Positions 794 through 18,636 are shown, numbered from the stretch's first letter. The stretch: 64,000 nucleotides of DNA from Bacteroidota bacterium (GCA_018266455.1 JAFEAJ010000016.1:12157-76156), one strand, 5' to 3'. Translations and numbers: made by a program. The notes: generated by a model not told the origin, from the letters alone.

Positions 794-1735
794 TTATACT
801 TTTGCTGCAGAAGCCTTACGAGAGCAAAAGCTGCTGAAACCTATTTGCTCCGTATCTTTTTTAAACTCTTCAAATTGTGCCGGGGGCATGTTGCTCACCG
901 GCAGGCGGAATTCCCCGCAATCGATGCCAATCAATTTCATGTATGCCTTGCCTGTCGCAATGCCACCGTATTTCCCAAGCAAACGGATCATATCAATAGA
1001 TTGCTGTTGTTTTTTTCCTGCTGTTTCAAAATCCCCTTTTTCAAATGCACTGATCATATCGTTGTATAACGGCGCTGCATAGTTGAAGGTGCTGCCAACG
1101 CCTCCCTTTGTGCCGAGGATTAATGCGCTCAACAGGTTTTCATCTCTTCCCCACAACATATCGTATTTGCCGTTTTTGAAATTCATGCAGGACAAGAAAT
1201 CCATAAAATCTTCGTGTGTATATTTTACTCCTGCAAAATTCGGGATATGCCCGTCAACGGCATTAAGCAACTCAAACATCGGGATGTTCGTTCCGTTTAA
1301 AACCGGGATATGATAATAATAAAACGGCATATCGGGCACCGCGTCAGCAATGGCCTTGCAACATTGTGCAAGCATTTTTGCCGAAGCGGGTTTAAAATAA
1401 AACGGGGCGGTGAACGCAATGGCATACAATCCAAATGAGCGGGCATGTTTTGCCAGTTCAATACAATCAGTAATGCTTGTGCCGCCGGTGAGCGTAATTA
1501 CTTTAAAATCTTTATCACCTGCTGTTGCTTTCGCCCAGGCTTCTGCAGTTTGCATTTTTTCCTTAACGCTCATAGATACGCCTTCGCCGGTAGAGCCGCA
1601 AATAAACCCGCCCTTCACATTATTTGCTTTTAGCATTGAATAATACTTCGGGATAATGGAAAGATTCAACGTTCCATCGGGTTGCATGGGCGTAAAGGGG
1701 GCTGCGATTAGTCCATGTAGGTGTTCCATTGTCAT
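794..1735 (-). CDS. nanA: N-acetylneuraminate lyase (DHDPS family class I aldolase)
   Basis: GSTGEG motif, YYYHIP, and Schiff-base Lys in GVKYT; sialidase context. The ORF track starts at 1771; the ATG at 1735 or 1729 is the more likely start. Confidence 0.88.
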   Translation of the reverse strand: MTMEHLHGLIAAPFTPMQPDGTLNLSIIPKYYSMLKANNVKGGFICGSTGEGVSMSVKEKMQTAEAWAKATAGDKDFKVITLTGGTSITDCIELAKHARSFGLYAIAFTAPFYFKPASAKMLAQCCKAIADAVPDMPFYYYHIPVLNGTNIPMFELLNAVDGHIPNFAGVKYTHEDFMDFLSCMNFKNGKYDMLWGRDENLLSALILGTKGGVGSTFNYAAPLYNDMISAFEKGDFETAGKKQQQSIDMIRLLGKYGGIATGKAYMKLIGIDCGEFRLPVSNMPPAQFEEFKKDTEQIGFSSFCSRKASAAKV

Positions 1736-1767
1736 AAATATATTTTGTTCAAATAATAATTTTAAAA

Positions 1768-2985: not shown

Positions 2986-3045
2986 AAATTACGCCATCGC
3001 TATTATTTATTGTCAGGATAATGTTTTGCTGAAAAAAAATTGTTG

Positions 3046-3081
3046 AAAAAAGCCGGGGGCGCTGCTTTTTACCCACCGGCT
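3046..3081 (-). terminator. Intrinsic terminator-like hairpin between susD and the sialidase gene
   Basis: Minus strand reads AGCCGGTGGG-loop-CCCCCGGCT followed by a T run. Confidence 0.6.
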
Positions 3082-3139
3082 GAAACCACTGCTTATGAAG
3101 AAAATTTTGACTACGGGATTCGTTTCAAAAATTCATTCT

Positions 3140-4744
3140 TTAGTGCGAAGCATATCCGGGATTTTGCGTTAGTTGTGTGTTATTCGTCAAAGCAGTCTGG
3201 TCTATCGGCCACAATAATTGATACGCTTGCGTAGCGGTGGTATGTTCAAACACATAACTACCTGCAGGGTCCATCCTTACCAAATCGTACCAACGCTTTC
3301 CTTCAAATATAAATTCATAAAAGCGCTCTTGCAGCAATGCTTCAACCGGGTTGGCGTCAATGGGCTGGTTGGGGAAGCCCATTGTGGCGGCATTATAATT
3401 TGCGCCATACGCCCTTGCTCTTACCATATTTATTTCATTTGAAGGGTCGGTGCCTAAAATAATTTCAGCTTCTGCTTTAAGCAATAGCAAGTCGGCATAC
3501 CTGTATATCGGAAAATCATTGTCGATTGCCCGGTTACCGGTTACAAATTCTCCCTGGTATTTATCGGCAAAACAGCCGGCAATGGTATAGTTGCCTCCCG
3601 AAAAAGTATATGCAGGCTGAATCGAAGCAAGCGCTCGCGTGTCTAAAGGATTGAATTGCCTGAAGGCGGCTATTTTTACCGGGGCACGAAGTAGCCCGCC
3701 CCAGTTGCCCGTGGTGTTGCCATTGAACTGAACATTATTTACCGAATCATAAAAATTAGAGATCAGCCCTGTTTGAGGAACAAAACTGTTGGTAACAAAA
3801 CTCATTGTGGCTTCATTGACCGAAGCGCTATATAAATAGTGAGAGGCGAAAATAATTTCTGCATTTCCTTTATTAGCAGAAGAGAAAACGCTCGCATAAG
3901 GGCTCAGCAACCCGCTGCCGGTAACAGGGCCTGTAACAGATGCATTGGTTGTGATCAATTTCAATGCGGGCACATTGGTTTGAATATCATTCAGCGCATT
4001 TAATGCAGTAGTAGCATCTGCTGCTCCTCCTCCCCGGTAACTTGTCCATAAATAAACATTGGCTTTTAACATTTCAGTGGCAGCCTTCGACCAATATGCT
4101 TTGCCAAATCCGGTGAAGAAAGAATAGTTGGCCCCGAAATTATTTAATGAGCTGTCTATGTCTGTTTTAATAAGAGCAGTTACCTGGGCTGCTGAAGAGG
4201 CCGGTTTAGCCAATGTTGCAATGTTGAATGACAAAACAGGGTCGGTTTGTATGACTACCGCGCCCCATGAGCGCAATAGATGAAAATAGTAAAACGCCCT
4301 CATGCCATAAGCAATGCCTAAATAATACTGGCGGTTAGCTGCAGGCACTACGGTGGTAGTTTGCAGCTTGCTGATCAGTAAATTGATCTGGTTGATGTTA
4401 TAATAAAACCCTCCAAAATTAGTAACTGGCGTAGCAGTAAGAGTAAGGTTATTTTGCCAGGTGCGCTCAAGGCCTTGTGTAGCTTCCCCGGTAAATGCGC
4501 TCAGGTTAGGAAGATCGGTGCCGAATATGTCTGCCCGCATCTCGCCAAGCGTTTGCATGTTGGCATTGTCCTGCCGGAATTGCGCATGAACGCCGGTAAC
4601 AAAAGCATCAAACTGGTTAGATGTTTTCCAATAGCTGGCATTGCTGATGCTGCTGATGGGGTTTAAATTCAATTGCTTTTGGCAGGAACTGAAAGCCGCA
4701 ATGAGCGCTATGCCTGCTAAAGAAAAATTTATATATTTTTTCAT
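3140..4744 (-). CDS. SusD/RagB family nutrient-binding outer-membrane lipoprotein
   Basis: Lipobox FSSC; IYRYADLLLLKAEA and ERFYEFIFEGKRWYDLVR motifs; directly downstream of SusC. Start taken at MKKYINF. Confidence 0.93.
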   Translation of the reverse strand: MKKYINFSLAGIALIAAFSSCQKQLNLNPISSISNASYWKTSNQFDAFVTGVHAQFRQDNANMQTLGEMRADIFGTDLPNLSAFTGEATQGLERTWQNNLTLTATPVTNFGGFYYNINQINLLISKLQTTTVVPAANRQYYLGIAYGMRAFYYFHLLRSWGAVVIQTDPVLSFNIATLAKPASSAAQVTALIKTDIDSSLNNFGANYSFFTGFGKAYWSKAATEMLKANVYLWTSYRGGGAADATTALNALNDIQTNVPALKLITTNASVTGPVTGSGLLSPYASVFSSANKGNAEIIFASHYLYSASVNEATMSFVTNSFVPQTGLISNFYDSVNNVQFNGNTTGNWGGLLRAPVKIAAFRQFNPLDTRALASIQPAYTFSGGNYTIAGCFADKYQGEFVTGNRAIDNDFPIYRYADLLLLKAEAEIILGTDPSNEINMVRARAYGANYNAATMGFPNQPIDANPVEALLQERFYEFIFEGKRWYDLVRMDPAGSYVFEHTTATQAYQLLWPIDQTALTNNTQLTQNPGYASH

Positions 4745-4763
4745 TGTTTGCATTTTTATCTTT

Positions 4764-7700
4764 TTAAAGTGAAACCTGAACGCCTATTACATAAGTACGT
4801 GGAGTTGGGTAAGTGCCGGAATATACGCCCGTGATTTGCCCCGCAACATTAACGGGAGGCTCGGGGGAATAACCGGAAAATTTAGTTACGTAAAATATAT
4901 TATTCAGGCTGGCATAAACCCTTGCTGATGTAAAAGCCCTTGTCTTTGACAAAATGGTTTTAGGTATCATGTATGACAGTGTCATTTCCCTGCAGGCCAA
5001 GTAATTTCCTTTTTCATAAAACCTGGAATTGTTGCCATTCAGGTTCGCTGAAGCATTGTTTACCCTGGTGTAGTTGTCTTTGTACAACTGATCGGCATAA
5101 TATACTTTAGGAATAGAGGTATTGGTGTTGGTAGGCGACCATGCCTGTTTCTGAAGTTCCATAAAATTAAATGTTCCCTGGTATTGCCCAAGCGTGCGGG
5201 CCACAAGATCATTGTAAATGGTGTGGCCAAGCGCATAATCAAAGCGCACATACAACGAAACTCCTTTGTAGCCAACAGTAGTACCAAAACCTCCTGTATA
5301 TTTTGGGTAGATATTTCCAATATATACCTGGTCCCTGGTATCAATCGTGTCGTTGCCTTTCACATCAAGCCAGTTCACATCACCTGCGGTTATATGGCCA
5401 CGGGTTCCCGGGGCCAGGTTCGGCCCTGTAATATTTGCAACCAGGTCTACCCTGTTCCCTGCTGTTTTCTGAACATCCCCGTCATCTTTAAAAATGGAAA
5501 CTTGCTTGAAGGCATAAATATTCCCCAGGGGCTGTCCTTGCTGAAGGCCGCCTACCCATACCAACTGACCTGTGTTAGGGTCCCAAACCTGTATGCCCCC
5601 CTGCCTGTTATTGGCATTGCCGTTGAATGGCAGTTTCAGCACTTTATTGGTGTTGTATGAAATGTTTGCATTTACGTCCCATGTAAAGCTGTTGGGCAAC
5701 CGGATAATGTTTGCATTTATTGAAATCTCATACCCTTTGTTTTGTAATGTGGAAAGGTTGGTTGTTACAGATGAGAAGCCTACATAACTGGGCAGCGTAA
5801 GGTTAGTAAGCAAATTGGTAGTCTTGCGGTTATAGATGTCTGCAATAATGGTGACCCGGTTGTTCAGCAAACCAATATCAGCGCCATAATCAATCGTAGC
5901 GCTTTGCTCCCATTTTAATCCACTGTTCACGGGAGATGTGTTGAGGTAACCACCAACGCCATTGTAATTGGTTTGTGCTCCGAACACACCCTGTACCTGG
6001 TAATAAGAAATTGTGCTGAGCGATGCGTTGCCATTAACCCCATAGCTGATGCGGGGCTTTAAGGTGGAGATGTATTTGCTTATATTGCTGTTTGCAAAAA
6101 ATTTCTCATTGTGCACATTCCATCCCGCCGACATGCCGGGAAAGAAGCCCCAGCGATTGGCAGCGGTAAGGTTAGATACGCCGTCTTCGCGGCCTACCAG
6201 AGTCAGCAGGTAGCGTGAATCGTAATCATAGGTTAAACGGCCAAAGGCAGAAACAATAGCGTATTGATATTGCGTAGTATAATTGTTGCCTGCTGCAAAA
6301 GTAGTGGAAGCATTGGCGGTTGAGATAAAGTCGGTAGGCGCACCGGTGCCATAAACCTGCATGTATGTGTTTTTCTGGCCGAAATATTCCGATCCTGCCA
6401 TGATGCTGAGGTGGTGCTTCTCGTTAATTGTTTTGGTGTAGTTGATGATGCCATTGAATTGCGTTTGGAACAAGCTTGCATTGTACATGATGGATGGCCT
6501 CGTAGTGCTGTAAGTGCCTGATACCAACTGCTGGTAAGATTGTGTGGCATCTGTAAAAGACTGTTGTACATTCTGGTTATAATACGCCATTCCGGTAAGC
6601 TTAACATATAGCCCGGGGATGATATCGTATTTTAAAGAGGTATTTGCCGTGATCTGGTTTACAATATTCTTGCGGTTAATCTTGCTTAGGTTGTATAGGG
6701 GATTTCCATCAGAATTGCCATTGCCCGGGTTTGGCTGGGTGTGTGCCGCATCAAGCCATGGGTTGAATGTTGGCCATATTGCCAAGGTACGGTAAATGGC
6801 ATTGGTTTCATTTCCGGAATTTTGATCTCCGGCACTGCCAATAGTGTTTGACGTGCTGGGTATCCCTAATTGATTAGAAGTAGAGAATGTTGCCCCTGAA
6901 CTAATTTCCAGGTTCGGGTTGATTTTATACGATCCGTTGATATTTCCTGTAAAACGCTGGTAGCCAGAGCCTACAATAATTCCGTTTTGATTAAAATAGT
7001 CAAAACTGCTATAGAACTTGCCTTTGTCATTCCCTGCTGTAACATCCACAAAGTGCTCCTGTGTGTGGGTGTTTTGAAAAAGCGCATCCGCTACCTGCCC
7101 GCTATGGTCTTTAAAAGTGATGATCCCGCTGTAATATCCGGGCGTGCCCTGAATTCCCTGAGGGCCATACGGATCGGTTACAGTATCCCATCCCGGTGCT
7201 ATAGCACCCGTATATGCCAGGATATCAAATGAAGCCAGGTTGCCGGGATCTGTCAGCAGCCCATAGCCCCTACGGGTATTCACTGCCGTAAAGGAAACGC
7301 CTGCATTCAGGTTACCAAGCCTGTTGTAATAAATAAAATCGTGGGCGTTCATATATTGATACCCCTTGCGCTGGTTATTAAAGCCTTGTGTAAATTTGTA
7401 AGATACCTGAGCTTTCCCCGATTTGCCTTGCTTGGTTGTTACGAGGATAACTCCATTGTTTGCACGGGCACCGTAAATAGCTGTGGAAGCGGCATCCCTT
7501 AGCAGGTCAATAGAAGCGATGTCGCCTGCCGGGATATCGCTTAAAGAAGGCCTTACGATCCCGTCAACCACAACCAAGGGTGGCGCCGGTGCATTAATGG
7601 AAGCGCCTCCACGCAAAAAGATTGCCGGAGTTGCTCCGGGCGTGCCGCTGGAGCTTACAACTTTAACTCCGGCGATAGCTCCCTGCAGGCTGCTTGCCAC

Positions 7701-8114
7701 ATTTGCAATTGGGGCTGTTTGAAGAACCGCGTTATCTAATTTGCCAATTGAGCTGGTAACGCTTTTCCTGATCTGGGTGCCATAGCCTATGACCACCACT
7801 TCTTCCATTTTAGCAGCTACTGCTTTTAAAGAAATATCAATAGCAGTTTGCTGGCCTACACGTATTTCCTCGGGAGTGTAACCGACAAATGAAAATAACA
7901 AGACATCTCCGGTATTAGCATCAATGGAATAGCTTCCGTCAGCAAGACTTTGTGTTCCTGACGTTTTGCCTTTAACTGTGATGCTTACATTTTGGAGGGT
8001 TTTGCCATCGTCGTTGCTAATGTGGCCGGTAATTTTTTTTGACTGTGCCCAGGCCGTTGTGCTGCAAAAGAATGCAAGCACCAGGAGGAGCAGAGAAGCA
8101 AAGAATGATTTCAT
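4764..8114 (-). CDS. SusC/RagA TonB-dependent outer-membrane transporter
   Basis: 1116 aa; EEVVVIGYG; plug motif DAASTAIYGARANNGVILVTTK; KWEQS; C-terminal YPTPRTYVIGVQVSL. Confidence 0.95.
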   Translation of the reverse strand: MKSFFASLLLLVLAFFCSTTAWAQSKKITGHISNDDGKTLQNVSITVKGKTSGTQSLADGSYSIDANTGDVLLFSFVGYTPEEIRVGQQTAIDISLKAVAAKMEEVVVIGYGTQIRKSVTSSIGKLDNAVLQTAPIANVASSLQGAIAGVKVVSSSGTPGATPAIFLRGGASINAPAPPLVVVDGIVRPSLSDIPAGDIASIDLLRDAASTAIYGARANNGVILVTTKQGKSGKAQVSYKFTQGFNNQRKGYQYMNAHDFIYYNRLGNLNAGVSFTAVNTRRGYGLLTDPGNLASFDILAYTGAIAPGWDTVTDPYGPQGIQGTPGYYSGIITFKDHSGQVADALFQNTHTQEHFVDVTAGNDKGKFYSSFDYFNQNGIIVGSGYQRFTGNINGSYKINPNLEISSGATFSTSNQLGIPSTSNTIGSAGDQNSGNETNAIYRTLAIWPTFNPWLDAAHTQPNPGNGNSDGNPLYNLSKINRKNIVNQITANTSLKYDIIPGLYVKLTGMAYYNQNVQQSFTDATQSYQQLVSGTYSTTRPSIMYNASLFQTQFNGIINYTKTINEKHHLSIMAGSEYFGQKNTYMQVYGTGAPTDFISTANASTTFAAGNNYTTQYQYAIVSAFGRLTYDYDSRYLLTLVGREDGVSNLTAANRWGFFPGMSAGWNVHNEKFFANSNISKYISTLKPRISYGVNGNASLSTISYYQVQGVFGAQTNYNGVGGYLNTSPVNSGLKWEQSATIDYGADIGLLNNRVTIIADIYNRKTTNLLTNLTLPSYVGFSSVTTNLSTLQNKGYEISINANIIRLPNSFTWDVNANISYNTNKVLKLPFNGNANNRQGGIQVWDPNTGQLVWVGGLQQGQPLGNIYAFKQVSIFKDDGDVQKTAGNRVDLVANITGPNLAPGTRGHITAGDVNWLDVKGNDTIDTRDQVYIGNIYPKYTGGFGTTVGYKGVSLYVRFDYALGHTIYNDLVARTLGQYQGTFNFMELQKQAWSPTNTNTSIPKVYYADQLYKDNYTRVNNASANLNGNNSRFYEKGNYLACREMTLSYMIPKTILSKTRAFTSARVYASLNNIFYVTKFSGYSPEPPVNVAGQITGVYSGTYPTPRTYVIGVQVSL

Positions 8115-8137
8115 GACAGCAGTTTAGTTTATGTATT

Positions 8138-8148
8138 ATGTATGACAT
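8138..8148. promoter_or_regulatory. Candidate FadR/GntR operator ATGTATGACAT (related copy ATACATGACAT at 8217-8227)
   Basis: Near-palindromic GT-N3-AC core typical of FadR-subfamily sites, in the divergent susC/regulator intergenic region. Confidence 0.4.
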
Positions 8149-8269
8149 AATAAAGGTAATGGTTTTAACATTCCATTTCCAAATTTTTTTTAAAAAAATT
8201 AATCTATTGATAATCAATACATGACATTTTTTTATTATTAAATTACTATATTAGCGTCTTTCAATTTAG

Positions 8270-8995
8270 TTGAACATGGTTATAGATAGCGCTGCAATCA
8301 AAGACAGATTTTCACCTATTGATACCCGTTCGCTGGTGGATAAAGTGGAGGCTAACCTCGTTGGGCTTCTTCAGCAAAAAAAGTTGAAGATTGGGGATAG
8401 CATTCCCAAAGAGATTGAACTGGCGGAAAACCTTGGGGTAAGCCGTACCGTTGTCAGGGAAGCTTTGCTCAGGTTGCGAATGATGGGCCTCATTGAGTCA
8501 AAAAAGAAAAAAGGTGCAGTGCTGACAAGCCCCGACTTGTTTGGGATAATCAATAAAAGCATGAACCCCCATATCCTTGACCAGGATACTTTGAAAGAAA
8601 TGTTTGAGATCCGGCTGGTGCTTGAAATAGGAATGGCTGACCTGATTTTTAACCGCATCGTACCAAATGACATTGAAGAGCTTTACCGCATCGTAAGCGA
8701 TGAGCCCCCGGCTGCTCAATACCATTTGTTCAATATCGATCACGAAATCAGTTTCCATGGAAAATTATATGAGATCACTGGCAATGAAACCATGAAAAAA
8801 TTCCAGAAAATGCTGTTGCCGATATTTGATTATGTACATAACAGCGGCTTGCTGAAAAAACAACCGGCCCTGAAAACATTCGTTTCGCATAAAGAGCTCG
8901 TTGATATTCTTCAGCACGGCAATCCCGAAAAATTCAGGAACGGCATGCGCAGCCACCTGGAAAATCACTTTGCCAGGATATTTGACAGAGATTAG
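8270..8995 (+). CDS. FadR/GntR family transcriptional regulator, probable regulator of the sialic acid locus
   Basis: wHTH IPKEIELAENLGVSRTVVREAL plus FCD domain (EIRLVLE, FHGKLY); divergent from susC. Confidence 0.9.
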   Translation: MNMVIDSAAIKDRFSPIDTRSLVDKVEANLVGLLQQKKLKIGDSIPKEIELAENLGVSRTVVREALLRLRMMGLIESKKKKGAVLTSPDLFGIINKSMNPHILDQDTLKEMFEIRLVLEIGMADLIFNRIVPNDIEELYRIVSDEPPAAQYHLFNIDHEISFHGKLYEITGNETMKKFQKMLLPIFDYVHNSGLLKKQPALKTFVSHKELVDILQHGNPEKFRNGMRSHLENHFARIFDRD

Positions 8996-9057: not shown

Positions 9058-10362
9058 TCAACTGATATAAATTTCATTTTGGCGAGGCGGGCCATGTTTG
9101 ACCATTTGCCCTACATTTGCTACCAACATTCCTGAGAAAAGAACAATGGCAGCAAACAGCAACAGCACATTAATAAATGGCGCTTCAATATAAGCCATAT
9201 CGCATGCGCCTTGTATCATCAGCAGCAGTTCATTCAAAATAATTCCTGCCACAAAAATTTTAAACCCGTTAATTGATAGTTTGTTCACCCTGACCAGGTT
9301 TAATGTTTGCATATAGGTAATGATGAAGAGCGAGATAACGCCTAACAGAACAAGATGGAGATAACCGATAACAATTGGCCTGAAACCAAAGGCAAGCCTG
9401 CTTAAAGGAGGGATGACAGAAATTGCCTGAAGGACAAGTTTAACTGAAAGGGCAATAGCCACCAATGTAAATAAAACCTTTGAAAGCGGAGATAATGCTG
9501 CTTGTATCAGCTTGAGTTTTTTTCTGATCTGCAGCAACAACAGAAGCCAGCCTGCCAGTTGTAGCAAAGAGGCTACCACAACAAGAATATAAACCCACAA
9601 AGGAATATGCAGCCATAATACTGAAAGAAAATAAGCAGGGACGCATGCTGCCGCAAATAAATAATAGGCCTGCTGCATTGAACGGCCTGCGATGCCATAT
9701 TCTGTTAGCTGAAAAGAGAGTAACCCCATGCAGGCAAAGAAGAACCAACCGTCGTACTGGAAATGCAGAAAGAAATAAACTGATGCCAGGTAAACATCCT
9801 GGTGTATGTTTTTTGATGCCATCATGTAAGCCAGCGTGAATGGGCCAATCGAAGAGATCACATTGAAAAATAATGAAGCTTTGAACCAGGAATGACAGAG
9901 CCTATTTTGTTGTAGCCTGTTCAAATCTTTCCAGAAAAAAATAGCAAATAAGTAAGATACAAAAATAGAAAGGGTAGAAAACAAGATGGAAAGAAATGCG
10001 TACCCCATAAACGGAAAAGTAAACAACATTCCGTATGCAGATACGAGGTTTGCCAATAGTATCCAGCGGTAACGCTTGAATGCGTTTTCTTGCTGTTGCT
10101 TTACAAGATAGCCAACAAGCAGTGCCATCAGCGCTTGGGTTACCCATCCGGAAAATGCAAAATGAGAATGTGCGTGCAATAGGAACCGTTGGTTTACAAA
10201 AGGCAGGGAGAATGCGATCTTGTACCGCAATACAGTTCCCAAAAGCGCAATGACCAATAAGTTGAATAATGAAATCCGCAGCCACTTGCTTTGCATATTG
10301 TTCATTTCTTTTTGGGAGCAAAATAACAACCCGGTTATTTTTTGCATTATGATTTTTATCAT
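9058..10362 (-). CDS. Polytopic membrane protein with His-rich helices (NnrS-like or heme-copper oxidase-like; function uncertain)
   Basis: About 12 hydrophobic segments; motifs LHAHSHFAFSGW, FLHFQYDGW and YLHLVLLG; ORF overlaps the Crp/Fnr gene end by 4 nt. True start may be a downstream Met. Confidence 0.6.
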   Translation of the reverse strand: MIKIIMQKITGLLFCSQKEMNNMQSKWLRISLFNLLVIALLGTVLRYKIAFSLPFVNQRFLLHAHSHFAFSGWVTQALMALLVGYLVKQQQENAFKRYRWILLANLVSAYGMLFTFPFMGYAFLSILFSTLSIFVSYLFAIFFWKDLNRLQQNRLCHSWFKASLFFNVISSIGPFTLAYMMASKNIHQDVYLASVYFFLHFQYDGWFFFACMGLLSFQLTEYGIAGRSMQQAYYLFAAACVPAYFLSVLWLHIPLWVYILVVVASLLQLAGWLLLLLQIRKKLKLIQAALSPLSKVLFTLVAIALSVKLVLQAISVIPPLSRLAFGFRPIVIGYLHLVLLGVISLFIITYMQTLNLVRVNKLSINGFKIFVAGIILNELLLMIQGACDMAYIEAPFINVLLLFAAIVLFSGMLVANVGQMVKHGPPRQNEIYIS

Positions 10363-10961
10363 ATAGCCTTACAGTACACTTTGCCTTTTAAAATTTTTAT
10401 TTCCCCTTTTTCATGAAGGTGCCGCATGCTGCGGATAACAGTTTCCACGCGAAGCCCGGTCATATCTGCAATTTGCTGGCGGGTGAGTTTGATTTGATTG
10501 CATTTCGGGCAAATATTTTTTTTTGACTGCTTGAAATAATCAATCAAAATCGAAATGCGGTGTTCGGAATCGGCGCAGGCAAGTTCTTTCAATAACAAAA
10601 ATTTAAAGCGCAACCTTTGTGTGAGCATTTTATCGAATTCAAAATGTATCTCAGGCTCTTCTTTCAACAACTGAAGAAAGCTTGATTTGTGAAGGCGGAT
10701 CACCACTGAATTTTCGTTGGCTATTGCCGAAGAAGCATAGGGGGAATCGTCGAACAAAGGAAACTCCCCAAAGCATTCTCCGGGCTGAATAAAATCATGA
10801 ATAAATTCTTTCCCTTCATCATTGATGTCTACCCAACGTACCGAACCGCCAGCTAACTGATGATAGAAAATACATTGTTGCCTTTCACTGAAGATTGTTT
10901 CTCCAGCAGTTACTTTTTTGTAGGTAGCGCCCCATGCCAGAAGTGTATCGATGCCAATCAT
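10359..10961 (-). CDS. Crp/Fnr family transcriptional regulator
   Basis: cNMP-binding fold (GECFGEFPLF, YASSAIA) and HTH LTRQQIADMTGLRVETVIR; start taken at MIGIDTLL. Confidence 0.92.
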   Translation of the reverse strand: MIGIDTLLAWGATYKKVTAGETIFSERQQCIFYHQLAGGSVRWVDINDEGKEFIHDFIQPGECFGEFPLFDDSPYASSAIANENSVVIRLHKSSFLQLLKEEPEIHFEFDKMLTQRLRFKFLLLKELACADSEHRISILIDYFKQSKKNICPKCNQIKLTRQQIADMTGLRVETVIRSMRHLHEKGEIKILKGKVYCKAI

Positions 10962-11060
10962 CGTATTGTGTTTTGATAAATAGATAATTCGATAATATAT
11001 AAAAACGCGCAAACCTCCTTAATTCAGCAACAAAGGGTAATGAGATTAAATAGTACACCA

Positions 11061-11076
11061 TATGACAATAATCATA
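11061..11076. promoter_or_regulatory. Crp/Fnr-type palindrome TATGA-CAATAA-TCATA
   Basis: Perfect 5-6-5 inverted repeat on the regulator side of the divergent intergenic region. Confidence 0.65.
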
Positions 11077-11186
11077 GCGCAGGCATTGCTGAAATCGCCA
11101 AAACCAATAGAATGCAGCACAGGCAAGGGTCTTAAAGTTTTTGTGAAATTAATAAAAAAAACGATTCTGGTCAGTATGAGCCAGAA

Positions 11187-11202
11187 TATGACATAACTCA
11201 TA
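11187..11202. promoter_or_regulatory. Crp/Fnr-type palindrome TATGA-CATAAC-TCATA
   Basis: Second perfect copy, about 50 bp upstream of the cytochrome c start and 21 bp upstream of a -7-like box (TAATCTTG, 11224-11231). Confidence 0.65.
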
Positions 11203-11253
11203 AAATGACAGCAGGCGTACGCTTAATCTTGCATAAAATTTAAAGATTTCATT

Positions 11254-11733
11254 ATGAAAAAAATAATTGTAACCGGGCTAATGGCTGCGTTGGTTATTGC
11301 ATGCGGCAGTAACAATTCCGGGGAGAACCAAGCTCCTTCTTCTCCCGCTTCATCTGATCAAAGTTCTTCATCCGGCAACCCTTCTTACGATCCGAACCGG
11401 GGAGCGGGGAAATTTACAAAAGTAGAAATATCTGCTAGCCTGGATGCAGCCAAAGCAGAAGCCGGAAGCAAAGTGTACTCGGTTAAATGCAGCGCCTGTC
11501 ATAAGCTGACTGATGAAAAATTAGTTGGCCCTGGATGGAAAGGCGTTACCAGCAGGCACAGTGCTGAATGGATCATGAATTTTGCTACTAACACAGATGA
11601 AATGCTTACAAAGGACCCAAAAGCGCAAGCACAATTAGAAATTTGCCTGGTGCGAATGCCAAACCAAAATTTAACAGATGATGATGCAAGGAATGTATAT
11701 GAGTTTATGCGAAAAAATGATGGGATAAAATAG
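11254..11733 (+). CDS. Monoheme cytochrome c lipoprotein of the nos cluster
   Basis: Lipobox VIAC; CSACH heme motif; VGPGW; distal Met candidate in LVRMP. Confidence 0.9.
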   Translation: MKKIIVTGLMAALVIACGSNNSGENQAPSSPASSDQSSSSGNPSYDPNRGAGKFTKVEISASLDAAKAEAGSKVYSVKCSACHKLTDEKLVGPGWKGVTSRHSAEWIMNFATNTDEMLTKDPKAQAQLEICLVRMPNQNLTDDDARNVYEFMRKNDGIK

Positions 11734-11792
11734 TAAGAAATGTTTCAGTTAATCAGTAAATTATTTTTTGACCTTCAATAATGTATTTCAAT

Positions 11793-13784
11793 ATGAAAAA
11801 AAATCAAGTATTGCCATTATATGTTTTAGCAGCAGTTGTTCTGCTGGGAACATATTCTTGCAAACCAAGAAACGCAGGCAGCGCTGTTACTTCAGGAGCT
11901 GCTGAGAAAGCTTATGTAGCCCCGGGAAAATATGATGAGTTCTATAATTTTGTTTCTGGCGGTTTCAGCGGGCAAATGAGTGTTTATGGCATCCCCTCAG
12001 GGAGGTTGCTTCGCGTAATCCCGGTATTCTCTGTTGACCCGGAGAAAGGTTATGGCTATTCAGAAGAAACAAAACCTATGCTGAATACATCTCATGGCTT
12101 TGTTCCATGGGATGACCTTCACCATACTGAACTTTCACAAACAAATGGAGAAATTGACGGACGATGGGTTTTCGGCAACGCTAATAATACCCCTCGTGTT
12201 GCACGGCTCGATCTTACTACGTTTTCTACCGCTGAAATTATTGAGCTGCCTAATAGCGCAGGCAACCACTCTTCCCCTTTTATTACCGAAAACACAGAAT
12301 ATGTAGTAGCAGGAACAAGGTTCAGTGTCCCACCGGATAATGTGAACGGTGATGTTCCTATCAATACATACAAGAAAAATTTTAAAGGCTACCTCAGCTT
12401 TATCAGTATTGGCAAAGAAGGCCAGATGGATATTGCATTCCAGATCCAATGCCCTGGGGTGGACTTTGATTTAAGCCATGCAGGCAAAGCTAAATCGCAC
12501 GACTGGTTTTTCTTCACGTGCTATAACAGCGAACGGGCAAATACCTTGCTGGAAGTGAACGCCTCTCAAAAAGACAAAGATTTTATTCTTGCTTTGAACT
12601 GGAAAAAAGCGGAAGAGTATGTAAAAGCAGGCAAAGGAAAGAAAGTGGCAGTTAAATATGCCCACAACGTTTATAACGAAAAAACACACACTGCCACTTC
12701 TGAAATCAGGAATGAAGTAACTGTTCTGGATTCAAAAGATTTTTCTGATCTGTGCTATTTCATTCCCTGCCCCAAATCACCTCATGGTTGTGATGTTGAC
12801 CCGACAGGAGAATATATAGTAGGGAGCGGGAAACTGGCAGCGCTGATCCCTGTTTTCAGTTTTGATAAATTGCAAAAAGCAATTGCCAACAAAGAATTTG
12901 ATGGCAATTATGAGGGCATCCCTGTTGTGAAATACGAGTCAGCATTGTATGGAGAAGTGCAGAAACCTGGCCTTGGCCCCTTGCATACCGAGTTCGATGG
13001 GAAGGGCAACGCTATTACTTCCTTTTTCGTTTCTTCAGAGCTGGTGAAATGGAATATTAAAGATTTGAAAGTCCTTGACAGAGTGCCCACTTATTATTCT
13101 GTAGGCCACCTTTGCATACCAGGCGGCGATACCAGAAAGCCAAATGCAAAATATGTGATCGCTTATAACAAAATTACAAAAGACCGCTACTTGCCAACAG
13201 GGCCTGAACTGGCTCAAAGTGCGCAATTGTTTGATATCACCGGTGATAAAATGCAGTTGATCCTTGACTTCCCTACCATTGGAGAACCTCACTATGCACA
13301 GGCTGTATCTGCCGACCTGATAAAAAGCAAGTCAGTGAAATTTTTCAACATCAACGATAACGCCAATCCTTACGTGTCAAAAGGGGAGCCCGAAGCAAAA
13401 GTTGTTCGTGAAGGAAATAAAGTGCATGTGTACATAACATCTATCCGCTCGCACTTTAACCCTGATAATATAGAAGGCATTAAAATTGGCGATGAAGTGT
13501 ATTTCCACGTAACAAACCTTGAACAGGACTGGGACATACCTCACGGGTTTGCGGTTAAAGGAGCGCCAAACGGGGAGCTGCTGATTATGCCCGGCAGTAC
13601 CCAAACACTGAAATGGGTGCCCGACAGAGTGGGGATATTCCCCTTCTACTGTACTGATTTCTGCAGCGCTTTGCACCAGGAAATGCAAGGCTATGCAAGG
13701 GTTTCTCCGGCAGGCAGCACTGTGCCGCTAATGTTTAGTACCGGCAAAAACCTGCCCCCATCAGACTCAACTTCAGCAAAATGA
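11793..13784 (+). CDS. nosZ: Nitrous oxide reductase, clade II (Sec-dependent)
   Basis: CuZ His motifs DDLHH, GNHSS, SPHG, PLHT, EPHY; CuA motifs PHGF and YCTDFCSALHQEM; no twin-Arg; lipobox-like GTYSC. Start taken at MKKNQ. Confidence 0.97.
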   Translation: MKKNQVLPLYVLAAVVLLGTYSCKPRNAGSAVTSGAAEKAYVAPGKYDEFYNFVSGGFSGQMSVYGIPSGRLLRVIPVFSVDPEKGYGYSEETKPMLNTSHGFVPWDDLHHTELSQTNGEIDGRWVFGNANNTPRVARLDLTTFSTAEIIELPNSAGNHSSPFITENTEYVVAGTRFSVPPDNVNGDVPINTYKKNFKGYLSFISIGKEGQMDIAFQIQCPGVDFDLSHAGKAKSHDWFFFTCYNSERANTLLEVNASQKDKDFILALNWKKAEEYVKAGKGKKVAVKYAHNVYNEKTHTATSEIRNEVTVLDSKDFSDLCYFIPCPKSPHGCDVDPTGEYIVGSGKLAALIPVFSFDKLQKAIANKEFDGNYEGIPVVKYESALYGEVQKPGLGPLHTEFDGKGNAITSFFVSSELVKWNIKDLKVLDRVPTYYSVGHLCIPGGDTRKPNAKYVIAYNKITKDRYLPTGPELAQSAQLFDITGDKMQLILDFPTIGEPHYAQAVSADLIKSKSVKFFNINDNANPYVSKGEPEAKVVREGNKVHVYITSIRSHFNPDNIEGIKIGDEVYFHVTNLEQDWDIPHGFAVKGAPNGELLIMPGSTQTLKWVPDRVGIFPFYCTDFCSALHQEMQGYARVSPAGSTVPLMFSTGKNLPPSDSTSAK

Positions 13785-13857
13785 TTACCCTTGGCCAACT
13801 GCATGCAGTTACCGGTTTGCAGTTGGCTTTCATATTTTCTAACTCCTCAATATGATT

Positions 13858-14427
13858 TTTATGAAAAATATTTATCTGGTCTTGACATTGTTTGTGGCCT
13901 TCAATATTTTTTCGTGCAGTAATGAACCTGAAAAACAACCCGAACAGGCTACAAACACTCAGCCGCCTGCGAGCGGCGGGCAGGAAAATGTAAAAGATGA
14001 TGAGTCGCAAAAAGATGTTGTGAAAGCGGCCATGGGATCCAAAGACCATACCACTTTGGTTGCAGCAATCAAACAAGCCGATTTGGTTACCACGCTTTCA
14101 AATGCCGGGCCATTCACCGTTTTTGCGCCCACCAATGCCGCTTTTGATAAACTTCCGGCAGGCACTGTCGATGGCCTGATGAAACCTGAAAAAAAAGAGG
14201 CCCTGACGAATATCTTAGAATATCATGTAACCGTGGGAGTGCTGAAACCTGAAAGCTTTGCCGACGGCCAAAGCCTGGGAATGGTGAATGGTGATAATGT
14301 GAAGGTGACCATAAAAGACGGAAAGGTAATGCTGAACAATTCGGCAACTATAACAGCTTCTATACCGGTTTCAAACGGCATTATTCACGTTGTTGATGCC
14401 GTGCTATTGCCACCTGAAAAAAAATAA
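13858..14427 (+). CDS. Fasciclin (FAS1) domain lipoprotein
   Basis: FTVFAPTNAAF, ILEYHV and NGIIHVVDAVL FAS1 motifs; lipobox IFSC. Confidence 0.92.
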   Translation, partial: FMKNIYLVLTLFVAFNIFSCSNEPEKQPEQATNTQPPASGGQENVKDDESQKDVVKAAMGSKDHTTLVAAIKQADLVTTLSNAGPFTVFAPTNAAFDKLPAGTVDGLMKPEKKEALTNILEYHVTVGVLKPESFADGQSLGMVNGDNVKVTIKDGKVMLNNSATITASIPVSNGIIHVVDAVLLPPEKK

Positions 14428-14459
14428 ATTTTTAATTTGACGGACATAAAAAAGTTTTT

Positions 14460-15065
14460 ATGGAAAAAGGCAAGTTAAGCCCCATCGTTAGGATACTTCT
14501 GTTAGCCGGTGCAATAGCGCTAACAGTAAGCATTTTTGTCCCGATATGGCAAATTGATTTAGATGCTCCGCAATATCCAGAAGGGCTGACCCTGCTCATA
14601 TTCAGTAATAAATTAGGGGGCAATGTGGATATCGTGAACGGGCTTAACCATTATATCGGGATGAAGACCCTGCATGCTGAAGACTTTATTGAATTCACCG
14701 TACTCCCTTACCTGATTGGTTTTTTTGCATTTGCTTTTTTGCTCACATCACTTATTGCAAAAAAGAAACTGTTATATGTGTTACTGATTGTTTTCATCCT
14801 TTTTGGAATTGTGGCAATATTTGATTTCTGGAGATGGGAATATAATTACGGACATAACCTAAACCCGGAAGCGGCAATTATAGTGCCGGGCATGACCTAC
14901 CAGCCACCTTTAATAGGGTTTAAACAATTGCTTAATTTTGGTGCTTATTCCATTCCTGCGCTTGGGGGATGGTTGTTTATAAGCTCAGGAATATTGCTCG
15001 TGATCAGCGTTTTTCTTTCAACAAAAAAAAAAAGTTCAACCCGGCATTTGAAAAATCTTCAATAA
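14460..15065 (+). CDS. nosB: NosB-type membrane protein of clade II nos clusters (possibly the N-terminal half of a NosB-NosL fusion)
   Basis: WQIDLDAPQYPEGL, NGLNHYIGMK and YNYGHNLNP motifs; about 4 TM segments; sits between nosZ and nosL. Confidence 0.78.
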   Translation: MEKGKLSPIVRILLLAGAIALTVSIFVPIWQIDLDAPQYPEGLTLLIFSNKLGGNVDIVNGLNHYIGMKTLHAEDFIEFTVLPYLIGFFAFAFLLTSLIAKKKLLYVLLIVFILFGIVAIFDFWRWEYNYGHNLNPEAAIIVPGMTYQPPLIGFKQLLNFGAYSIPALGGWLFISSGILLVISVFLSTKKKSSTRHLKNLQ

Positions 15066-15481
15066 TAGTACCTGGCTTGCTGTTGATGATCAGCCTCAAC
15101 AGTTGCAACCCGGGACCGCAACCCATTGCGCCAGGAAAAGACAATTGCGCATTCTGCAAAATGATGGTTACTGATTTGCGCTATTGTTCAGAAATAGTAA
15201 CTAAAAAAGGAAAGACCTATAAGTTTGATGACCCGCATTGCCTGATGTCTTTCCTTCATGCGAGCGAAGTTAAACAAGGTGAAATCCGGGACATTTACTT
15301 TGCAGACTTTACCGATAACCGACATTTCATTAAGGCAGGCGAAGCCGTTTTTTTTCAAAGCGATTCGCTGGCAACCCCCATGAACGGCAATATTGCAGCT
15401 TTTACAAATACACAAACCCTTCAGCAGGCGATGAAAAACCATGACGGCAAAATTTTGCATTGGAACGACATCAATAAATGA
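14969..15481 (+). CDS. nosL: NosL copper chaperone; 5' end uncertain (see A11 finding)
   Basis: CAFCKMMV, KFDDPHCL and TPMNGNI motifs; lipobox-like LNSC. Confidence 0.85.
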   Translation: MVVYKLRNIARDQRFSFNKKKKFNPAFEKSSIIVPGLLLMISLNSCNPGPQPIAPGKDNCAFCKMMVTDLRYCSEIVTKKGKTYKFDDPHCLMSFLHASEVKQGEIRDIYFADFTDNRHFIKAGEAVFFQSDSLATPMNGNIAAFTNTQTLQQAMKNHDGKILHWNDINK

Positions 15482-16713
15482 AAAAAATATTATTATACGC
15501 ATTGCTTTTCTGCACCTGCTTTTCATTGTATGCAAATACGATAAAAGTAGGCCGGAACGAAAATATCTCAACTATCGCCAAAGGAATTGCGCTAGCCGCA
15601 AATGGAGATACTGTGCTGGTTGGCCCGGGGCTATATAAAGAGCATGGCCTCATAGTCAACAAATCAATTTTGCTGAAAGGGGCCAATAATCCGGTCATTG
15701 ATGGAGAAAACAAATTTGAAGTGGTCGCAATCACTGTCAGCAATGTTACTATAGAGGGGTTTACGGTTATCAATTCAGGTTCTTCTTCAGTAGAAGATTA
15801 TGCAGGGATCAAGATCATCAACAGTAAAAATGTCATCATCAGGAACAATATCCTTCAGAACAATTTTTTCGGAATTTATTCCCAACATGGCACCCATTGC
15901 AGGATTGAAAATAATCGCATCAGTTCAACTGCTGTGTCGGAGCAACTGAGTGGCAATGGCATTCATTGCTGGAAGAGCGATAGCATGTACATTATCGGGA
16001 ACAAAATGAATGGCAACAGGGACGGGATCTATTTTGAATTCGTTACCAATTCTGTCATCAGCAGAAACGAGTCTTTCAAAAATGTACGCTACGGACTGCA
16101 TTTTATGTTCTCCAACAACGATGCTTATATCAGCAACCTCTTTCACAACAATGGTTCCGGTGTAGCAGTAATGTATTCGCATGGGGTAAGCATGATCCGC
16201 AATTTCTTTTTTGAAAACTGGGGAGATGCAGCTTATGGGCTGCTGCTGAAAGAAATTGCTGACAGCTATATTGATAACAATTCATTTGAAAAAAATACCA
16301 GCGGGATTGTGATGGAAGGAGCAAGCCGCATCCAGGTGCAGCGTAATTCTTTCAATAGAAATGGCACAGCATTGCGCATACAAGCCAGTTGCATGGACAT
16401 CGATATCAAAAAAAACAATTTTATCGGCAACACTTTCGACGTGTCTACCAACGGGTCGCTGGTGCTGAATTCCTTTAAAGGAAATTTTTGGGACAAATAT
16501 GAAGGCTATGATTTGAACAGAGATGGCATCGGCGATGTGCCATACCGGCCGGTAAGCTTATATTCTATGATCATTGAGAAAAATCCGCCTGCCATGATTT
16601 TATTCAGGAGCTTTATGTCGTCATTGCTGGATAAAACCGAAAGGGTACTGCCCGGTCTGACACCCGAAGCGCTAAAGGACGATAACCCATTAATGAAACC
16701 ATTAAAGTTATGA
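15478..16713 (+). CDS. nosD: NosD periplasmic CuZ maturation protein (parallel beta-helix)
   Basis: GIHCWKS, RDGIYFEF, RYGLHFMFS, GNFWDKYEGYDLNRDGIGDVPY. Confidence 0.93.
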   Translation: MKKILLYALLFCTCFSLYANTIKVGRNENISTIAKGIALAANGDTVLVGPGLYKEHGLIVNKSILLKGANNPVIDGENKFEVVAITVSNVTIEGFTVINSGSSSVEDYAGIKIINSKNVIIRNNILQNNFFGIYSQHGTHCRIENNRISSTAVSEQLSGNGIHCWKSDSMYIIGNKMNGNRDGIYFEFVTNSVISRNESFKNVRYGLHFMFSNNDAYISNLFHNNGSGVAVMYSHGVSMIRNFFFENWGDAAYGLLLKEIADSYIDNNSFEKNTSGIVMEGASRIQVQRNSFNRNGTALRIQASCMDIDIKKNNFIGNTFDVSTNGSLVLNSFKGNFWDKYEGYDLNRDGIGDVPYRPVSLYSMIIEKNPPAMILFRSFMSSLLDKTERVLPGLTPEALKDDNPLMKPLKL

Positions 16714-17417
16714 TCATTGCCAGTAATGTGTCGAAAAAATTTAAGAAGCTGACCGTTTTGGAAAACGTGTCGTTGAACTGTATAAAGGGAGAGTGCATCG
16801 CATTGATTGGCCCGAACGGCAGCGGCAAAACAACACTTATCAAAACGATCCTGGGCATGGTAGTGCCAGACAGTGGGTTTATAACCTTCAATGGCAGGAA
16901 TATTTTGCACGACTGGAAATACCGTTCACACATCGGCTATATGCCCCAAATAGGCCGTTATCCTGATAACATGACAATAGGCCAGGTGCTGAGTATGATG
17001 AAAGACATTAGGGCACACAAAGAAAAAACCTTTGATGAAGAACTGATCTATGCATTCGGATTAAACATATTGCTAAATAAACGGATGCGCACATTATCAG
17101 GTGGGACGAGGCAAAAGGTGAGCGCTTGCCTTGCCTTCCTGTTCGATCCGGAAGTGCTCATACTGGATGAGCCGACTGCAGGGCTGGACCCGCTCTCTTC
17201 TGAACTTTTAAAAGACAAGATCAGGAAAGAAAAACAAAAGGGCAAGCTTATTATGATCACTTCGCATATCCTTAGTGAACTGGACGACCTTATCACACAG
17301 GTAATTTATATGCAGGAGGGGAAATTGGTATTTCACAAAAATATTGATGACCTGCGTAAGGAAACAGGAGAACAGAAACTGTCAAAAGCCATTGCATCCG
17401 TTATGATAAAAAAATAA
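16710..17417 (+). CDS. nosF: NosF ABC ATPase
   Basis: Walker A GPNGSGKT, signature LSGG, Walker B ILDEP; overlaps the nosD stop. Confidence 0.9.
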   Translation: MIIASNVSKKFKKLTVLENVSLNCIKGECIALIGPNGSGKTTLIKTILGMVVPDSGFITFNGRNILHDWKYRSHIGYMPQIGRYPDNMTIGQVLSMMKDIRAHKEKTFDEELIYAFGLNILLNKRMRTLSGGTRQKVSACLAFLFDPEVLILDEPTAGLDPLSSELLKDKIRKEKQKGKLIMITSHILSELDDLITQVIYMQEGKLVFHKNIDDLRKETGEQKLSKAIASVMIKK

Positions 17418-17421
17418 ATGC

Positions 17422-18189
17422 ATGATAAAAATTGTTAAATATGTTATTGTGGATATCCTGCGAAATAAAATCGTAATCGCTTACACAGCCTTCCTGCTTG
17501 CGATTTCTCTGAGTATTTTTAACCTGGAAGACAATACTTCAAAAGGCTTGCTAAGCCTGCTGAATATCATATTGATCATCATCCCGCTGGTATCCATTAT
17601 TTTTTCTACCATTTATGTCTACAATAGCTCTGAGTTCCTAGAACTGCTGGTGAGCCAGCCATTGAAGAGAAAGAATATATGGATGAGCCTTTTTGCAGGC
17701 CTTGCTATTTCTCTTTCGTTTGCATTTTGTATAGGAGCTGGGATACCAATTATTTTATATGCAGCATCTTCCACAGGGTTCGTGATGCTTGGAATGGGCC
17801 TCATCTTATCCATCGTGTTCGCTTCGGTAGCCATGTTAAGCGCAGTAATGATCCGCGATAAAGCCAAGGGGATCGGCATTTCCATTTTACTGTGGCTGTA
17901 TTTTTCATTGCTGTTCGATGGGATGGTTTTGTTCATATTGTTCCAGTTTGAAGATTATCCGCTGGAAAAAATAATGGTTGCAATTACTGCATTTAACCCA
18001 ATAGATCTTGGGCGGATCCTGATTTTGCTAAAAATGGATATTTCAGCGATGATGGGCTATACGGGAGCAATATTCAGGGATTTTTTTGGCACCGGAACCG
18101 GGTTTTTTATCGCATTGCTTGTGATGCTGCTTTGGGTTGCAGTACCTGCCTGGCTATCTGTCAGGACCTTTAACAGGAAAGACCTGTAA
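17422..18189 (+). CDS. nosY: NosY ABC permease
   Basis: 6-7 TM segments; ELLVSQPLKR and FNPIDLGRI; follows nosF. Confidence 0.87.
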   Translation: MIKIVKYVIVDILRNKIVIAYTAFLLAISLSIFNLEDNTSKGLLSLLNIILIIIPLVSIIFSTIYVYNSSEFLELLVSQPLKRKNIWMSLFAGLAISLSFAFCIGAGIPIILYAASSTGFVMLGMGLILSIVFASVAMLSAVMIRDKAKGIGISILLWLYFSLLFDGMVLFILFQFEDYPLEKIMVAITAFNPIDLGRILILLKMDISAMMGYTGAIFRDFFGTGTGFFIALLVMLLWVAVPAWLSVRTFNRKDL

Positions 18190-18204
18190 CATATTGTTCT
18201 GACC

Positions 18205-18636
18205 ATGCTATTACAACTGGCAAAAATGAAAAAAGACATTGAAACAAGAAAAGATATCGAGCTGCTCGTAAATGAATTTTATGAGCGGGTTAAAAATGAC
18301 GACCTGATTGCATTCATTTTTACAGCAGTAAGAAAAGTGGATTGGAATAAGCATTTGCCTGTTATGTACGATTTCTGGGAAAATATTTTATTTCAATCCG
18401 GGACATATTATGGCAACCCAATGGCATTGCACAAACAATTGCACCAGCAGGTGCCCTTGAAGCAGGAATATTTTCAGCGATGGGTTTATCTTTTCGATCA
18501 AACTGTTGATGATTTATTTTATGGAGAGAACGCATCCCTGGTCAAAAAAAGGGCATCAAGCATTGCTGAAGTGATGCAAATGAAAATCCTACATAAAAAT
18601 GATTTTTTATCTGGGAAACCTGGCTTAACCAACTGA
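18205..18636 (+). CDS. Group III truncated haemoglobin (trHbP)
   Basis: LVNEFYERV, HLPVMYDFW, YYGNPMALH, FQRWVYLF and A..IA pattern. Confidence 0.9.
   Translation: MLLQLAKMKKDIETRKDIELLVNEFYERVKNDDLIAFIFTAVRKVDWNKHLPVMYDFWENILFQSGTYYGNPMALHKQLHQQVPLKQEYFQRWVYLFDQTVDDLFYGENASLVKKRASSIAEVMQMKILHKNDFLSGKPGLTN

Follow-up and report, generated by a model that had tools for sequence, protein, structure and literature searches.

The 64 kb stretch of DNA analysed here (hereafter the window) comes from a Chitinophagaceae-like Bacteroidota bacterium and carries, at positions 9058-18636, a Sec/lipoprotein-type nos operon for the reduction of nitrous oxide (N2O). We propose, with a probability of about 0.6, that this clade II nos operon lies inside a small sensing and protection regulon resembling the Dnr/NnrR-NnrS systems. 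In the cluster, the genes for a membrane protein and a Crp/Fnr regulator are located on the minus strand and diverge from a plus-strand unit with the order cytC-nosZ-fasciclin-nosB-nosL-nosD-nosF-nosY-globin. These eleven genes had been listed in an earlier note made from the sequence alone, and an open reading frame (ORF) map combined with Pfam, NCBIfam and other family scans recovered all of them at the positions given there.

Linkage of the accessory genes to nos

Species-representative genomes were scanned with the NosZ of the window, which retrieved 80 loci with NosZ identities of 76-85% in Chitinophagaceae, Flavobacterium, Cytophagales and others. Cultured strains and species represented in the set include Flavobacterium fluvii DSM 19978, Hydrotalea sandarakina DSM 23241, Pinibacter soli and Flavihumibacter profundi. 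Synteny was counted in the 47 loci with full flanks, considering genes within 10 kb. All 47 carry cytC, nosB, nosL, nosD, nosF and nosY. Within 10 kb of nos, a Crp gene was present in 43 of them, the membrane-protein gene in 40, a globin gene in 40 and a fasciclin gene in 32. The synteny check proposed in the earlier note thus came out in favour of conservation for all four accessory genes across Bacteroidota nosZ-II loci.

The accessory genes occur in at least three layouts. The fasciclin gene is encoded either between nosZ and nosB, as in the window, or 3' of the globin gene on the opposite strand, and in the Flavobacterium layout the fasciclin, membrane-protein and crp genes are all found 3' of the globin gene. 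The genes that flank the cluster in the window, gntR and PSP1, were retrieved in none of the 80 related loci. The accessory genes stay with the cluster even where its neighbourhood and gene order differ. A reverse search, starting from the membrane-protein family in metagenomic contigs, brought the dataset to about 160 loci; in nearly all metagenome loci of at least 9 kb, crp, cytC and nosZ adjoin the membrane-protein gene.

Two exceptions, L155 (9388-14207) and L160, are informative. In both, genes for OsmC, a cytochrome c and a 448-amino-acid NorB-like protein of the COX1 family come after crp and the membrane-protein and fasciclin genes, and no nos gene occurs within 10 kb. A NorB-like gene was detected within 10 kb in 12 of the 160 loci, and it directly adjoins the membrane-protein gene where positions were read (L001, L155 and L160). 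Homologues of nirK, 54-56% identical to S. meliloti NirK, were found in or beside the cluster in three of the 160 loci (L153, L161 and L054, in which the gene is located at 16070-17050, between nosY and the globin gene), so some close relatives are not pure N2O sinks. The NorB-like, nirK and OsmC genes that are now and then encoded nearby indicate a context of nitric oxide (NO) and oxidative or nitrosative stress.

A shared palindromic box

A palindrome of the form TATGA-N6-TCATA occurs three times within the cluster. One copy, TATGATTTTTATCATA (10348-10363), overlaps the crp stop codon about 50 nucleotides (nt) 5' of where the membrane-protein gene probably starts; another, TATGACAATAATCATA (11061-11076), lies between the divergent crp and cytC genes, nearer to crp; and the centre of the third, TATGACATAACTCATA (11187-11202), is about 60 nt 5' of the cytC ATG. 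In the genome and metagenome loci, we counted boxes with at most one mismatch within 200 nt 5' of each gene, for which shuffled sequence gives a chance level of about 0.015 per 200 nt. The box precedes cytC in 74 of 76 genome loci and 49 of 52 metagenome loci, crp in 58 of 65 and 43 of 44, and the membrane-protein gene in 47 of 59 and 46 of 70, respectively. Stand-alone fasciclin genes are preceded by the box in 28 of 30 genome loci and 14 of 17 metagenome loci, whereas fasciclin genes within the operon never are (0/13 and 0/6).

The remaining genes of the operon almost always lack the box. In front of nosZ, nosB, nosD, nosF and nosY, it was found in 0-3 of 65-78 genome loci and in no metagenome locus, and in front of the globin gene in 1 of 53 and 1 of 25. 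The box is present at cytC and almost never at the globin gene, which indicates that the latter is transcribed at the end of the nos operon. The distances from box to start are tight, mostly about 50-75 nt in the case of cytC and about 46 nt in that of the membrane-protein gene. The crp gene, the fasciclin gene and the OsmC-cytochrome c-NorB-like operon of L155 and L160 are each preceded by the box. Such a distribution is expected of one activator acting over several transcription units. Co-regulation, which the earlier note had proposed to check, is supported in its in silico form, as a conserved operator-like box is common to the accessory genes and the nos operon. One further copy in the window, TATGAAACCGATCACA at 26431, lies inside a gene for an AcrB-family efflux protein (23917-27498) and is probably a chance match.

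The Crp/Fnr regulator

The regulator is encoded at 10359-11012 on the minus strand, with a likely start at M18 (10961). It contains a cNMP-type effector domain (Pfam cNMP_binding, E 1e-17) and a Crp helix-turn-helix (HTH_Crp_2). All NCBIfam equivalogue models scored below their cut-offs, the CRP model reaching 79 bits against a cut-off of 266, and the best PDB matches were Vfr/CRP, followed by FNR and DNR. Its recognition helix, RVETVIR, is FNR-like and conserved. Given this helix and the adjacency of the genes, we infer that the Crp/Fnr protein binds the TATGA-N6-TCATA boxes.

Conservation was read across 53 orthologues. Two known kinds of sensor were considered and rejected: an FNR-type [4Fe-4S] oxygen sensor, as the N-terminal Cys cluster is absent, and a cAMP-binding CRP, as an Ala occupies the position of Arg82 in an ungapped reading of GEFPLFDDSPYASS against GELGLFEEGQERSA of CRP. 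With neither Fe-S cluster nor cAMP arginine, and with no equivalogue match, the signal of the regulator is not readable from its sequence. A CPKC (CxxC) motif near residues 151-154 of the trimmed protein (window 10500-10511), between the effector domain and the helix-turn-helix, is present in about 75-80% of the orthologues and could act as a thiol or metal switch.

A membrane protein with a predicted oxidase fold

The membrane protein is encoded on the minus strand at 9058-10362, in an ORF of 434 codons whose likely start is M20 or M23 (ATG at 10305 or 10296). No match was retrieved in Pfam or NCBIfam at E-values up to 10, in PDB with phmmer, or in PDB with a profile of 124 sequences. More than 5500 homologues of the protein were retrieved, every one of them unnamed or annotated as 'hypothetical' and none with a Pfam domain, and the family comprises 1989 clusters at 50% identity. 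There were no remote relatives among the best 150 matches listed, all of which were full-length family members.

An AlphaFold2 model built on 28 sequences (predicted local distance difference test, pLDDT, 86; predicted template modelling score, pTM, 0.89) shows twelve helices. Its top Foldseek match was CcoN of the cbb3 oxidase (6xkw_n, template modelling (TM) score 0.75), followed by qNOR, cNOR and COX1, and 35 of the top 39 matches were subunit I, NorB or qNOR chains. From this model, the membrane protein is predicted to adopt the fold of subunit I of haem-copper oxidases. Across 124 representatives, H65 and H67 (helix 2), H200 (helix 6), H336 (helix 10) and E378 (helix 11) are invariant or nearly so (ORF numbering). 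The earlier note had described the protein as His-rich, a label that overstates these four histidines.

Haem-copper oxidase subunit I proper (PF00115) was tried and rejected as an identity for the protein. Its six canonical His ligands are distributed as one each in helices 2 and 6 and two each in helices 7 and 10, whereas the membrane protein has no conserved His in helix 7 and a single one in helix 10. Without the helix-7 HH pair and with one helix-10 His, the canonical haem-CuB centre is not formed. The histidines belong to H-x4-G-(W) motifs spaced by about 133-136 residues, and helices 1-4 align weakly with helices 5-8 (E 8e-4); an alignment of helices 9-12 with the other thirds was not significant, so a threefold internal repeat was not detected. 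Motif spacing and weak repeat fit the pseudo-threefold build of oxidase subunit I. An attempt to match the histidines of the protein to oxidase ligands by hhalign with FixN, S. meliloti NorB and a NorB-like protein was not significant, with probabilities of at most 0.5%, and helix 2 may correspond to either helix 2 or helix 10 of the oxidases.

The reference for NnrS was nnrS of S. meliloti pSymA (L081:20126-21334; PF05940, E 2e-113). The identification of the membrane protein as NnrS was rejected at the sequence level, with no match to Pfam NnrS at E-values up to 10, and at the profile level, with hhalign probabilities of 2.3% against S. meliloti NnrS and 0.3% against an NnrS alignment. An AlphaFold2 model of a genuine NnrS (pLDDT 79) also matched CcoN and NorB chains, with TM scores of 0.6-0.7, and NnrS itself appears in this prediction to resemble haem-copper oxidase subunit I in its fold. 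Both proteins carry the motif H-x-H-x4-G-aromatic in helix 2 (HSHFAFSGW in the membrane protein and HAHEMLFGF in NnrS). Because size, topology, predicted fold, motif style and kind of genomic partner are the same, we call the membrane protein NnrS-like and regard it as a probable structural and contextual analogue of NnrS, not as NnrS by sequence.

Globin and fasciclin

The globin gene is located at 18205-18636 on the plus strand, with a likely start at M8 (18226), and follows nosY in 40 of the 47 loci. The protein has no signal peptide. It scored 27.5 bits with Pfam Bac_globin, above the cut-off of 21, and its best PDB match was 2IG3 (E 1e-12), the group III truncated haemoglobin Ctb of Campylobacter. 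The segments FYERV/FYEKV, ALHKQL/KKHLDL and RWVYLF/IWLKLF align, which include the B10 Tyr, the proximal His and the G8 Trp. By these similarities, the globin is identified as a group III truncated haemoglobin of the Ctb type.

The fasciclin (FAS1) gene at 13852-14427, on the plus strand, encodes a lipoprotein (Pfam Fasciclin, E 5e-35; lipobox FSC). In the window it is inside the operon, and elsewhere it is also found as a separate gene with its own box.

Core nos genes

NosZ (11781-13784, plus strand) scored 920 bits with the Sec-dependent model TIGR04246, for which the cut-off is 625, and 371 bits, below the cut-off of 625, with the Tat-type model TIGR04244. A twin arginine is missing from its N-terminus, MYFNMKKNQVLPLYVLAAVVLLGTYSC, at the end of which stands the lipobox-like motif TYSC, and the CuA site, C-x3-C-x3-H-x2-M, is intact. 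These features identify it as a clade II, Sec-dependent nitrous oxide reductase. The ORF 3' of the fasciclin gene (14460-15065, plus strand, 201 amino acids) contains LNHYIGM (residue 62) and YGHN (residue 130), which have been cited as diagnostic of NosB in a study of Flavobacterium (PMC9697520). The presence of both stretches in a predicted polytopic protein encoded near nosZ supports its assignment as NosB. The Sec-type NosZ accompanied by NosB that the earlier note had claimed is therefore present, going by the TIGR04246 score, the missing twin arginine and the two NosB stretches.

The first gene of the operon, cytC (11254-11733, plus strand), encodes a mono-haem cytochrome c (Pfam Cytochrom_C, E 1e-9) with the haem motif CSACH at residue 79. 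The lipoprotein-type signal of the protein ends in VIAC and is followed by a low-complexity linker. CytC is the presumed electron donor to NosZ, and a cytochrome c gene is an already recognized part of clade II clusters (PMC9697520, PMC6264515). Downstream, NosL, a copper chaperone, is encoded at 14969-15481 (Pfam NosL, E 3e-13), NosD at 15478-16713 (TIGR04247, 416 bits against a cut-off of 300), NosF at 16710-17417 (ABC_tran) and NosY at 17422-18189 (ABC2_membrane_2), all on the plus strand. NosD, NosF and NosY form the ATP-binding cassette (ABC) complex for maturation.

The earlier note had treated nosB and nosL as two genes. They are split in the window, but in 72 of 77 loci (76 related loci and the window) they form one continuous ORF of about 335-340 amino acids, the window being one of five split cases. 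The comparison of the junction with ten relatives places a one-base (-1) frame change, with the NosL part in the -1 frame relative to nosB, within a run of eleven A at 15023-15033 on the plus strand. The two frames of the window, LSTKKK... and ...NKKKKFNPAFEKSSIIVPGLLLMISLNSC, combine to give the architecture of the relatives: the final helix of NosB, a stretch rich in lysine, a hydrophobic segment with SC at its end, and the NosL domain. An error in the assembly, a genuine frameshift or slippage could each account for the split. Fusions of NosB and NosL have been described before (PMC9697520).

Lipobox-like signal ends were observed in four of the encoded proteins: CytC (VIAC, 11293), NosZ (TYSC, 11850), fasciclin (FSC, 13909) and NosL (LNSC, about 15100). 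The lipoprotein-type ends suggest that the whole periplasmic N2O-reducing set may be lipid-anchored as a membrane-tethered assembly. That the fasciclin protein would serve as a scaffold for this assembly is speculation.

Proposed working and alternative explanations

In the working that we propose, a Crp/Fnr activator would act on boxes about 45-70 nt before the start codons of a regulon made up of the nos operon, crp itself, the membrane-protein gene and, where it stands alone, the fasciclin gene. N2O reductase would be switched on by low O2 and/or NO, the cytochrome c would feed electrons to NosZ, and the cell would be buffered against NO or O2 during NosZ activity. By analogy, the module would combine features of Dnr/NnrR-NnrS of proteobacterial denitrifiers and of NssR-Ctb of Campylobacter. 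The earlier note had placed the regulator, membrane protein, fasciclin and globin in an accessory module around NosZ; the module itself gains support from the conserved linkage and the shared box, while sensing and protection are retained here as putative roles and a presumed role in electron supply is assigned to the cytochrome c.

Several observations weigh against this proposal. At the threshold used, about one-fifth of the membrane-protein genes in genomes and one-third of those in metagenomes have no box, and within 10 kb the membrane-protein gene is missing in 7 of the 47 loci and the fasciclin gene in 15. The NosZ proteins of the related loci are 76-85% identical to that of the window, so part of the synteny reflects common descent. 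By sequence, CRP/Vfr rather than Dnr or NnrR are closest to the regulator, and neither sequence nor profile comparison yielded a significant match between the membrane protein and NnrS. As NosZ is periplasmic, the cytoplasmic globin could offer protection only indirectly.

The membrane protein might instead be an electron-entry module, a quinol-oxidizing haem protein that replaces NosR/NosGH and passes electrons via the lipoprotein cytochrome c to NosZ. A predicted haem-copper oxidase fold with conserved His in helices 2, 6 and 10, the tight linkage of its gene to nos and a cluster devoid of nosR, nosX, nosG and nosH would all agree with such a role. However, the gene is transcribed with the regulator and not with the operon, has its own box, neighbours a NorB-like operon in L155 and L160, where nos is missing within 10 kb, and is not found nearby in 7 of 47 nos loci; nor is a quinol site readable from the protein sequence. 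Bacteroidota can, moreover, supply cytochrome c from alternative complex III, and we consider electron entry through this protein unlikely. A role as sensor partner, in which a membrane haem protein relays an NO or O2 signal to a cofactor-free Crp/Fnr protein, is suggested by the arrangement of the two genes, which are adjacent and on the same strand in nearly every locus with both and overlap or abut in the window, and by a regulator lacking both the FNR Cys cluster and the cAMP arginine. Yet this regulator retains a full effector domain, and the box 5' of the membrane-protein gene makes the latter look like a target rather than an upstream component. We know of no Crp/Fnr protein that signals through a 12-helix partner, and this relay seems improbable to us.

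The accessory genes could also be mere neighbours inherited together in one lineage, with the box as a generic site for global anaerobic regulation of the FNR type. All compared loci are fairly close relatives, with NosZ at least 70% identical to that of the window, the box resembles the FNR consensus TTGAT-N4-ATCAA, and there is the further box at 26431. Against this, the linkage has outlasted three gene orders while the flanking genes are never shared, the box accompanies the fasciclin gene only when it stands alone (28/30 versus 0/13), and three of the four boxes in the window are inside the cluster. Coincidental neighbourhood is thus, in our judgement, quite improbable, and the reading as a Dnr/NnrR-NnrS-like regulon is the one that we favour.

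Surroundings of the cluster

According to the earlier note, the window contains neither nosR/nosX nor nir/nor genes. This holds for the ORFs of at least 280 amino acids, since among the 20 such ORFs besides the cluster we detected no nir, nor, nosR or nosX/ApbE. In a tblastn comparison of the window with 49 kb of S. meliloti pSymA, which encodes homologues of NnrS, NirK and NorB, the sole match was the Crp homologue. The term 'island', if taken to mean foreign DNA, gains no support from the G+C content, which in the cluster is like that of the rest of the window, or from tRNA genes, none of which flanks it; gntR and PSP1 beside the cluster are, however, missing from all 80 related loci. Scans for Rfam families and tRNA retrieved none in the window. 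Sites found in sigma-70 promoter and terminator scans were no commoner than in shuffled sequence, Bacteroidota promoters being outside the coverage of the scan.

Upstream of the cluster, at 794-8995, the window encodes a set for polysaccharide or sialic-acid utilization that is unrelated to nos. It comprises a DHDPS/NanA-like protein, a BNR sialidase-like protein, SusD, a SusC-type TonB receptor and GntR, and is absent from all related nos loci.

Comparison with known systems

Clade II nos clusters of Bacteroidota are known from Flavobacterium azooxidireducens (PMC9697520) and from fosmids of marine Flavobacteriia (PMC6264515), and clusters with cytochrome c, nosB or nosBL, nosL, nosD, nosF and nosY are well described (PMC9697520, PMC11409646). 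The cluster in the window shares with them the cytochrome c gene, a Sec-type nosZ, nosB or nosB-nosL, nosL, nosD, nosF and nosY, and the lack of nosR/nosX. In the fosmid study, the regulators beside Bacteroidetes nos clusters were mostly Rrf2 and in one case NnrR-like, with an occasional nnrS or dnrN (PMC6264515). The terminal group III globin, the fasciclin, the oxidase-fold protein paired with Crp/Fnr and the shared box are absent from both descriptions (PMC9697520, PMC6264515). In our literature search, no paper was found in which the globin, fasciclin, oxidase-fold protein or box are treated as parts of nos clusters, or the four accessory genes as one module, which agrees with the view of the earlier note that the system is under-described. 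The core nos genes are ordinary; the under-described part is the conserved accessory regulon together with the unannotated oxidase-fold family.

As in NnrR/Dnr-NnrS systems (PMC1274295), a Crp/Fnr-family gene is accompanied by an FNR-like palindrome 5' of N-oxide reductase genes, and the same palindrome is found 5' of a gene for a membrane protein of about 400 amino acids and 12 helices with the H-x-H-x4-G-aromatic motif in helix 2. The predicted haem-copper oxidase subunit I fold is a further likeness to NnrS. The differences are the box itself (TATGA-N6-TCATA), a regulator that is not an NnrR/Dnr orthologue by score, nos instead of nir/nor as the main target, and a membrane protein without a Pfam match to NnrS and with hhalign probabilities below 3%. 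In Campylobacter jejuni, the Crp/Fnr-type nitrosative-stress regulator NssR reportedly controls Ctb, a group III truncated haemoglobin. In the window, too, a truncated haemoglobin of group III seems to belong to a regulon of the Crp/Fnr type; in contrast to ctb, its gene would be co-transcribed with the nos operon and lacks a separate box, and the NssR box is different. The membrane protein resembles haem-copper oxidase subunit I (CcoN, NorB, qNOR and COX1) in its twelve predicted helices, in TM scores of up to 0.75 and in the His of helices 2, 6 and 10, and differs from it in an identity of only about 12%, the lack of a PF00115 match and the conservation of only four His.

Implications

Bacteroidota with clade II nosZ account for most N2O-reducing genomes in wastewater, and many of them are non-denitrifying sinks (PMC11409646). 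The cluster provides handles on the regulation of NosZ, its electron supply and its protection against O2 or NO in Bacteroidota, questions that arise from earlier work (PMC9697520, PMC6264515). These handles are testable and consist of a candidate operator sequence, a candidate regulator and three accessory proteins whose genes accompany nos, one of them from a large unannotated family with a predicted oxidase-like fold. A further and more tentative possibility, to which we lend less than even odds, is that this family represents a new haem membrane protein for N-oxide respiration in Bacteroidota, either a non-canonical NO or O2 scavenger or the electron entry to clade II NosZ, and that the paired Crp/Fnr protein is a new NO or O2 sensor. 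Were this so, the paired regulator would govern the timing of induction in the most abundant N2O reducers of the environment. Provided that the regulon is real, sequence could be used to predict when these bacteria consume N2O.

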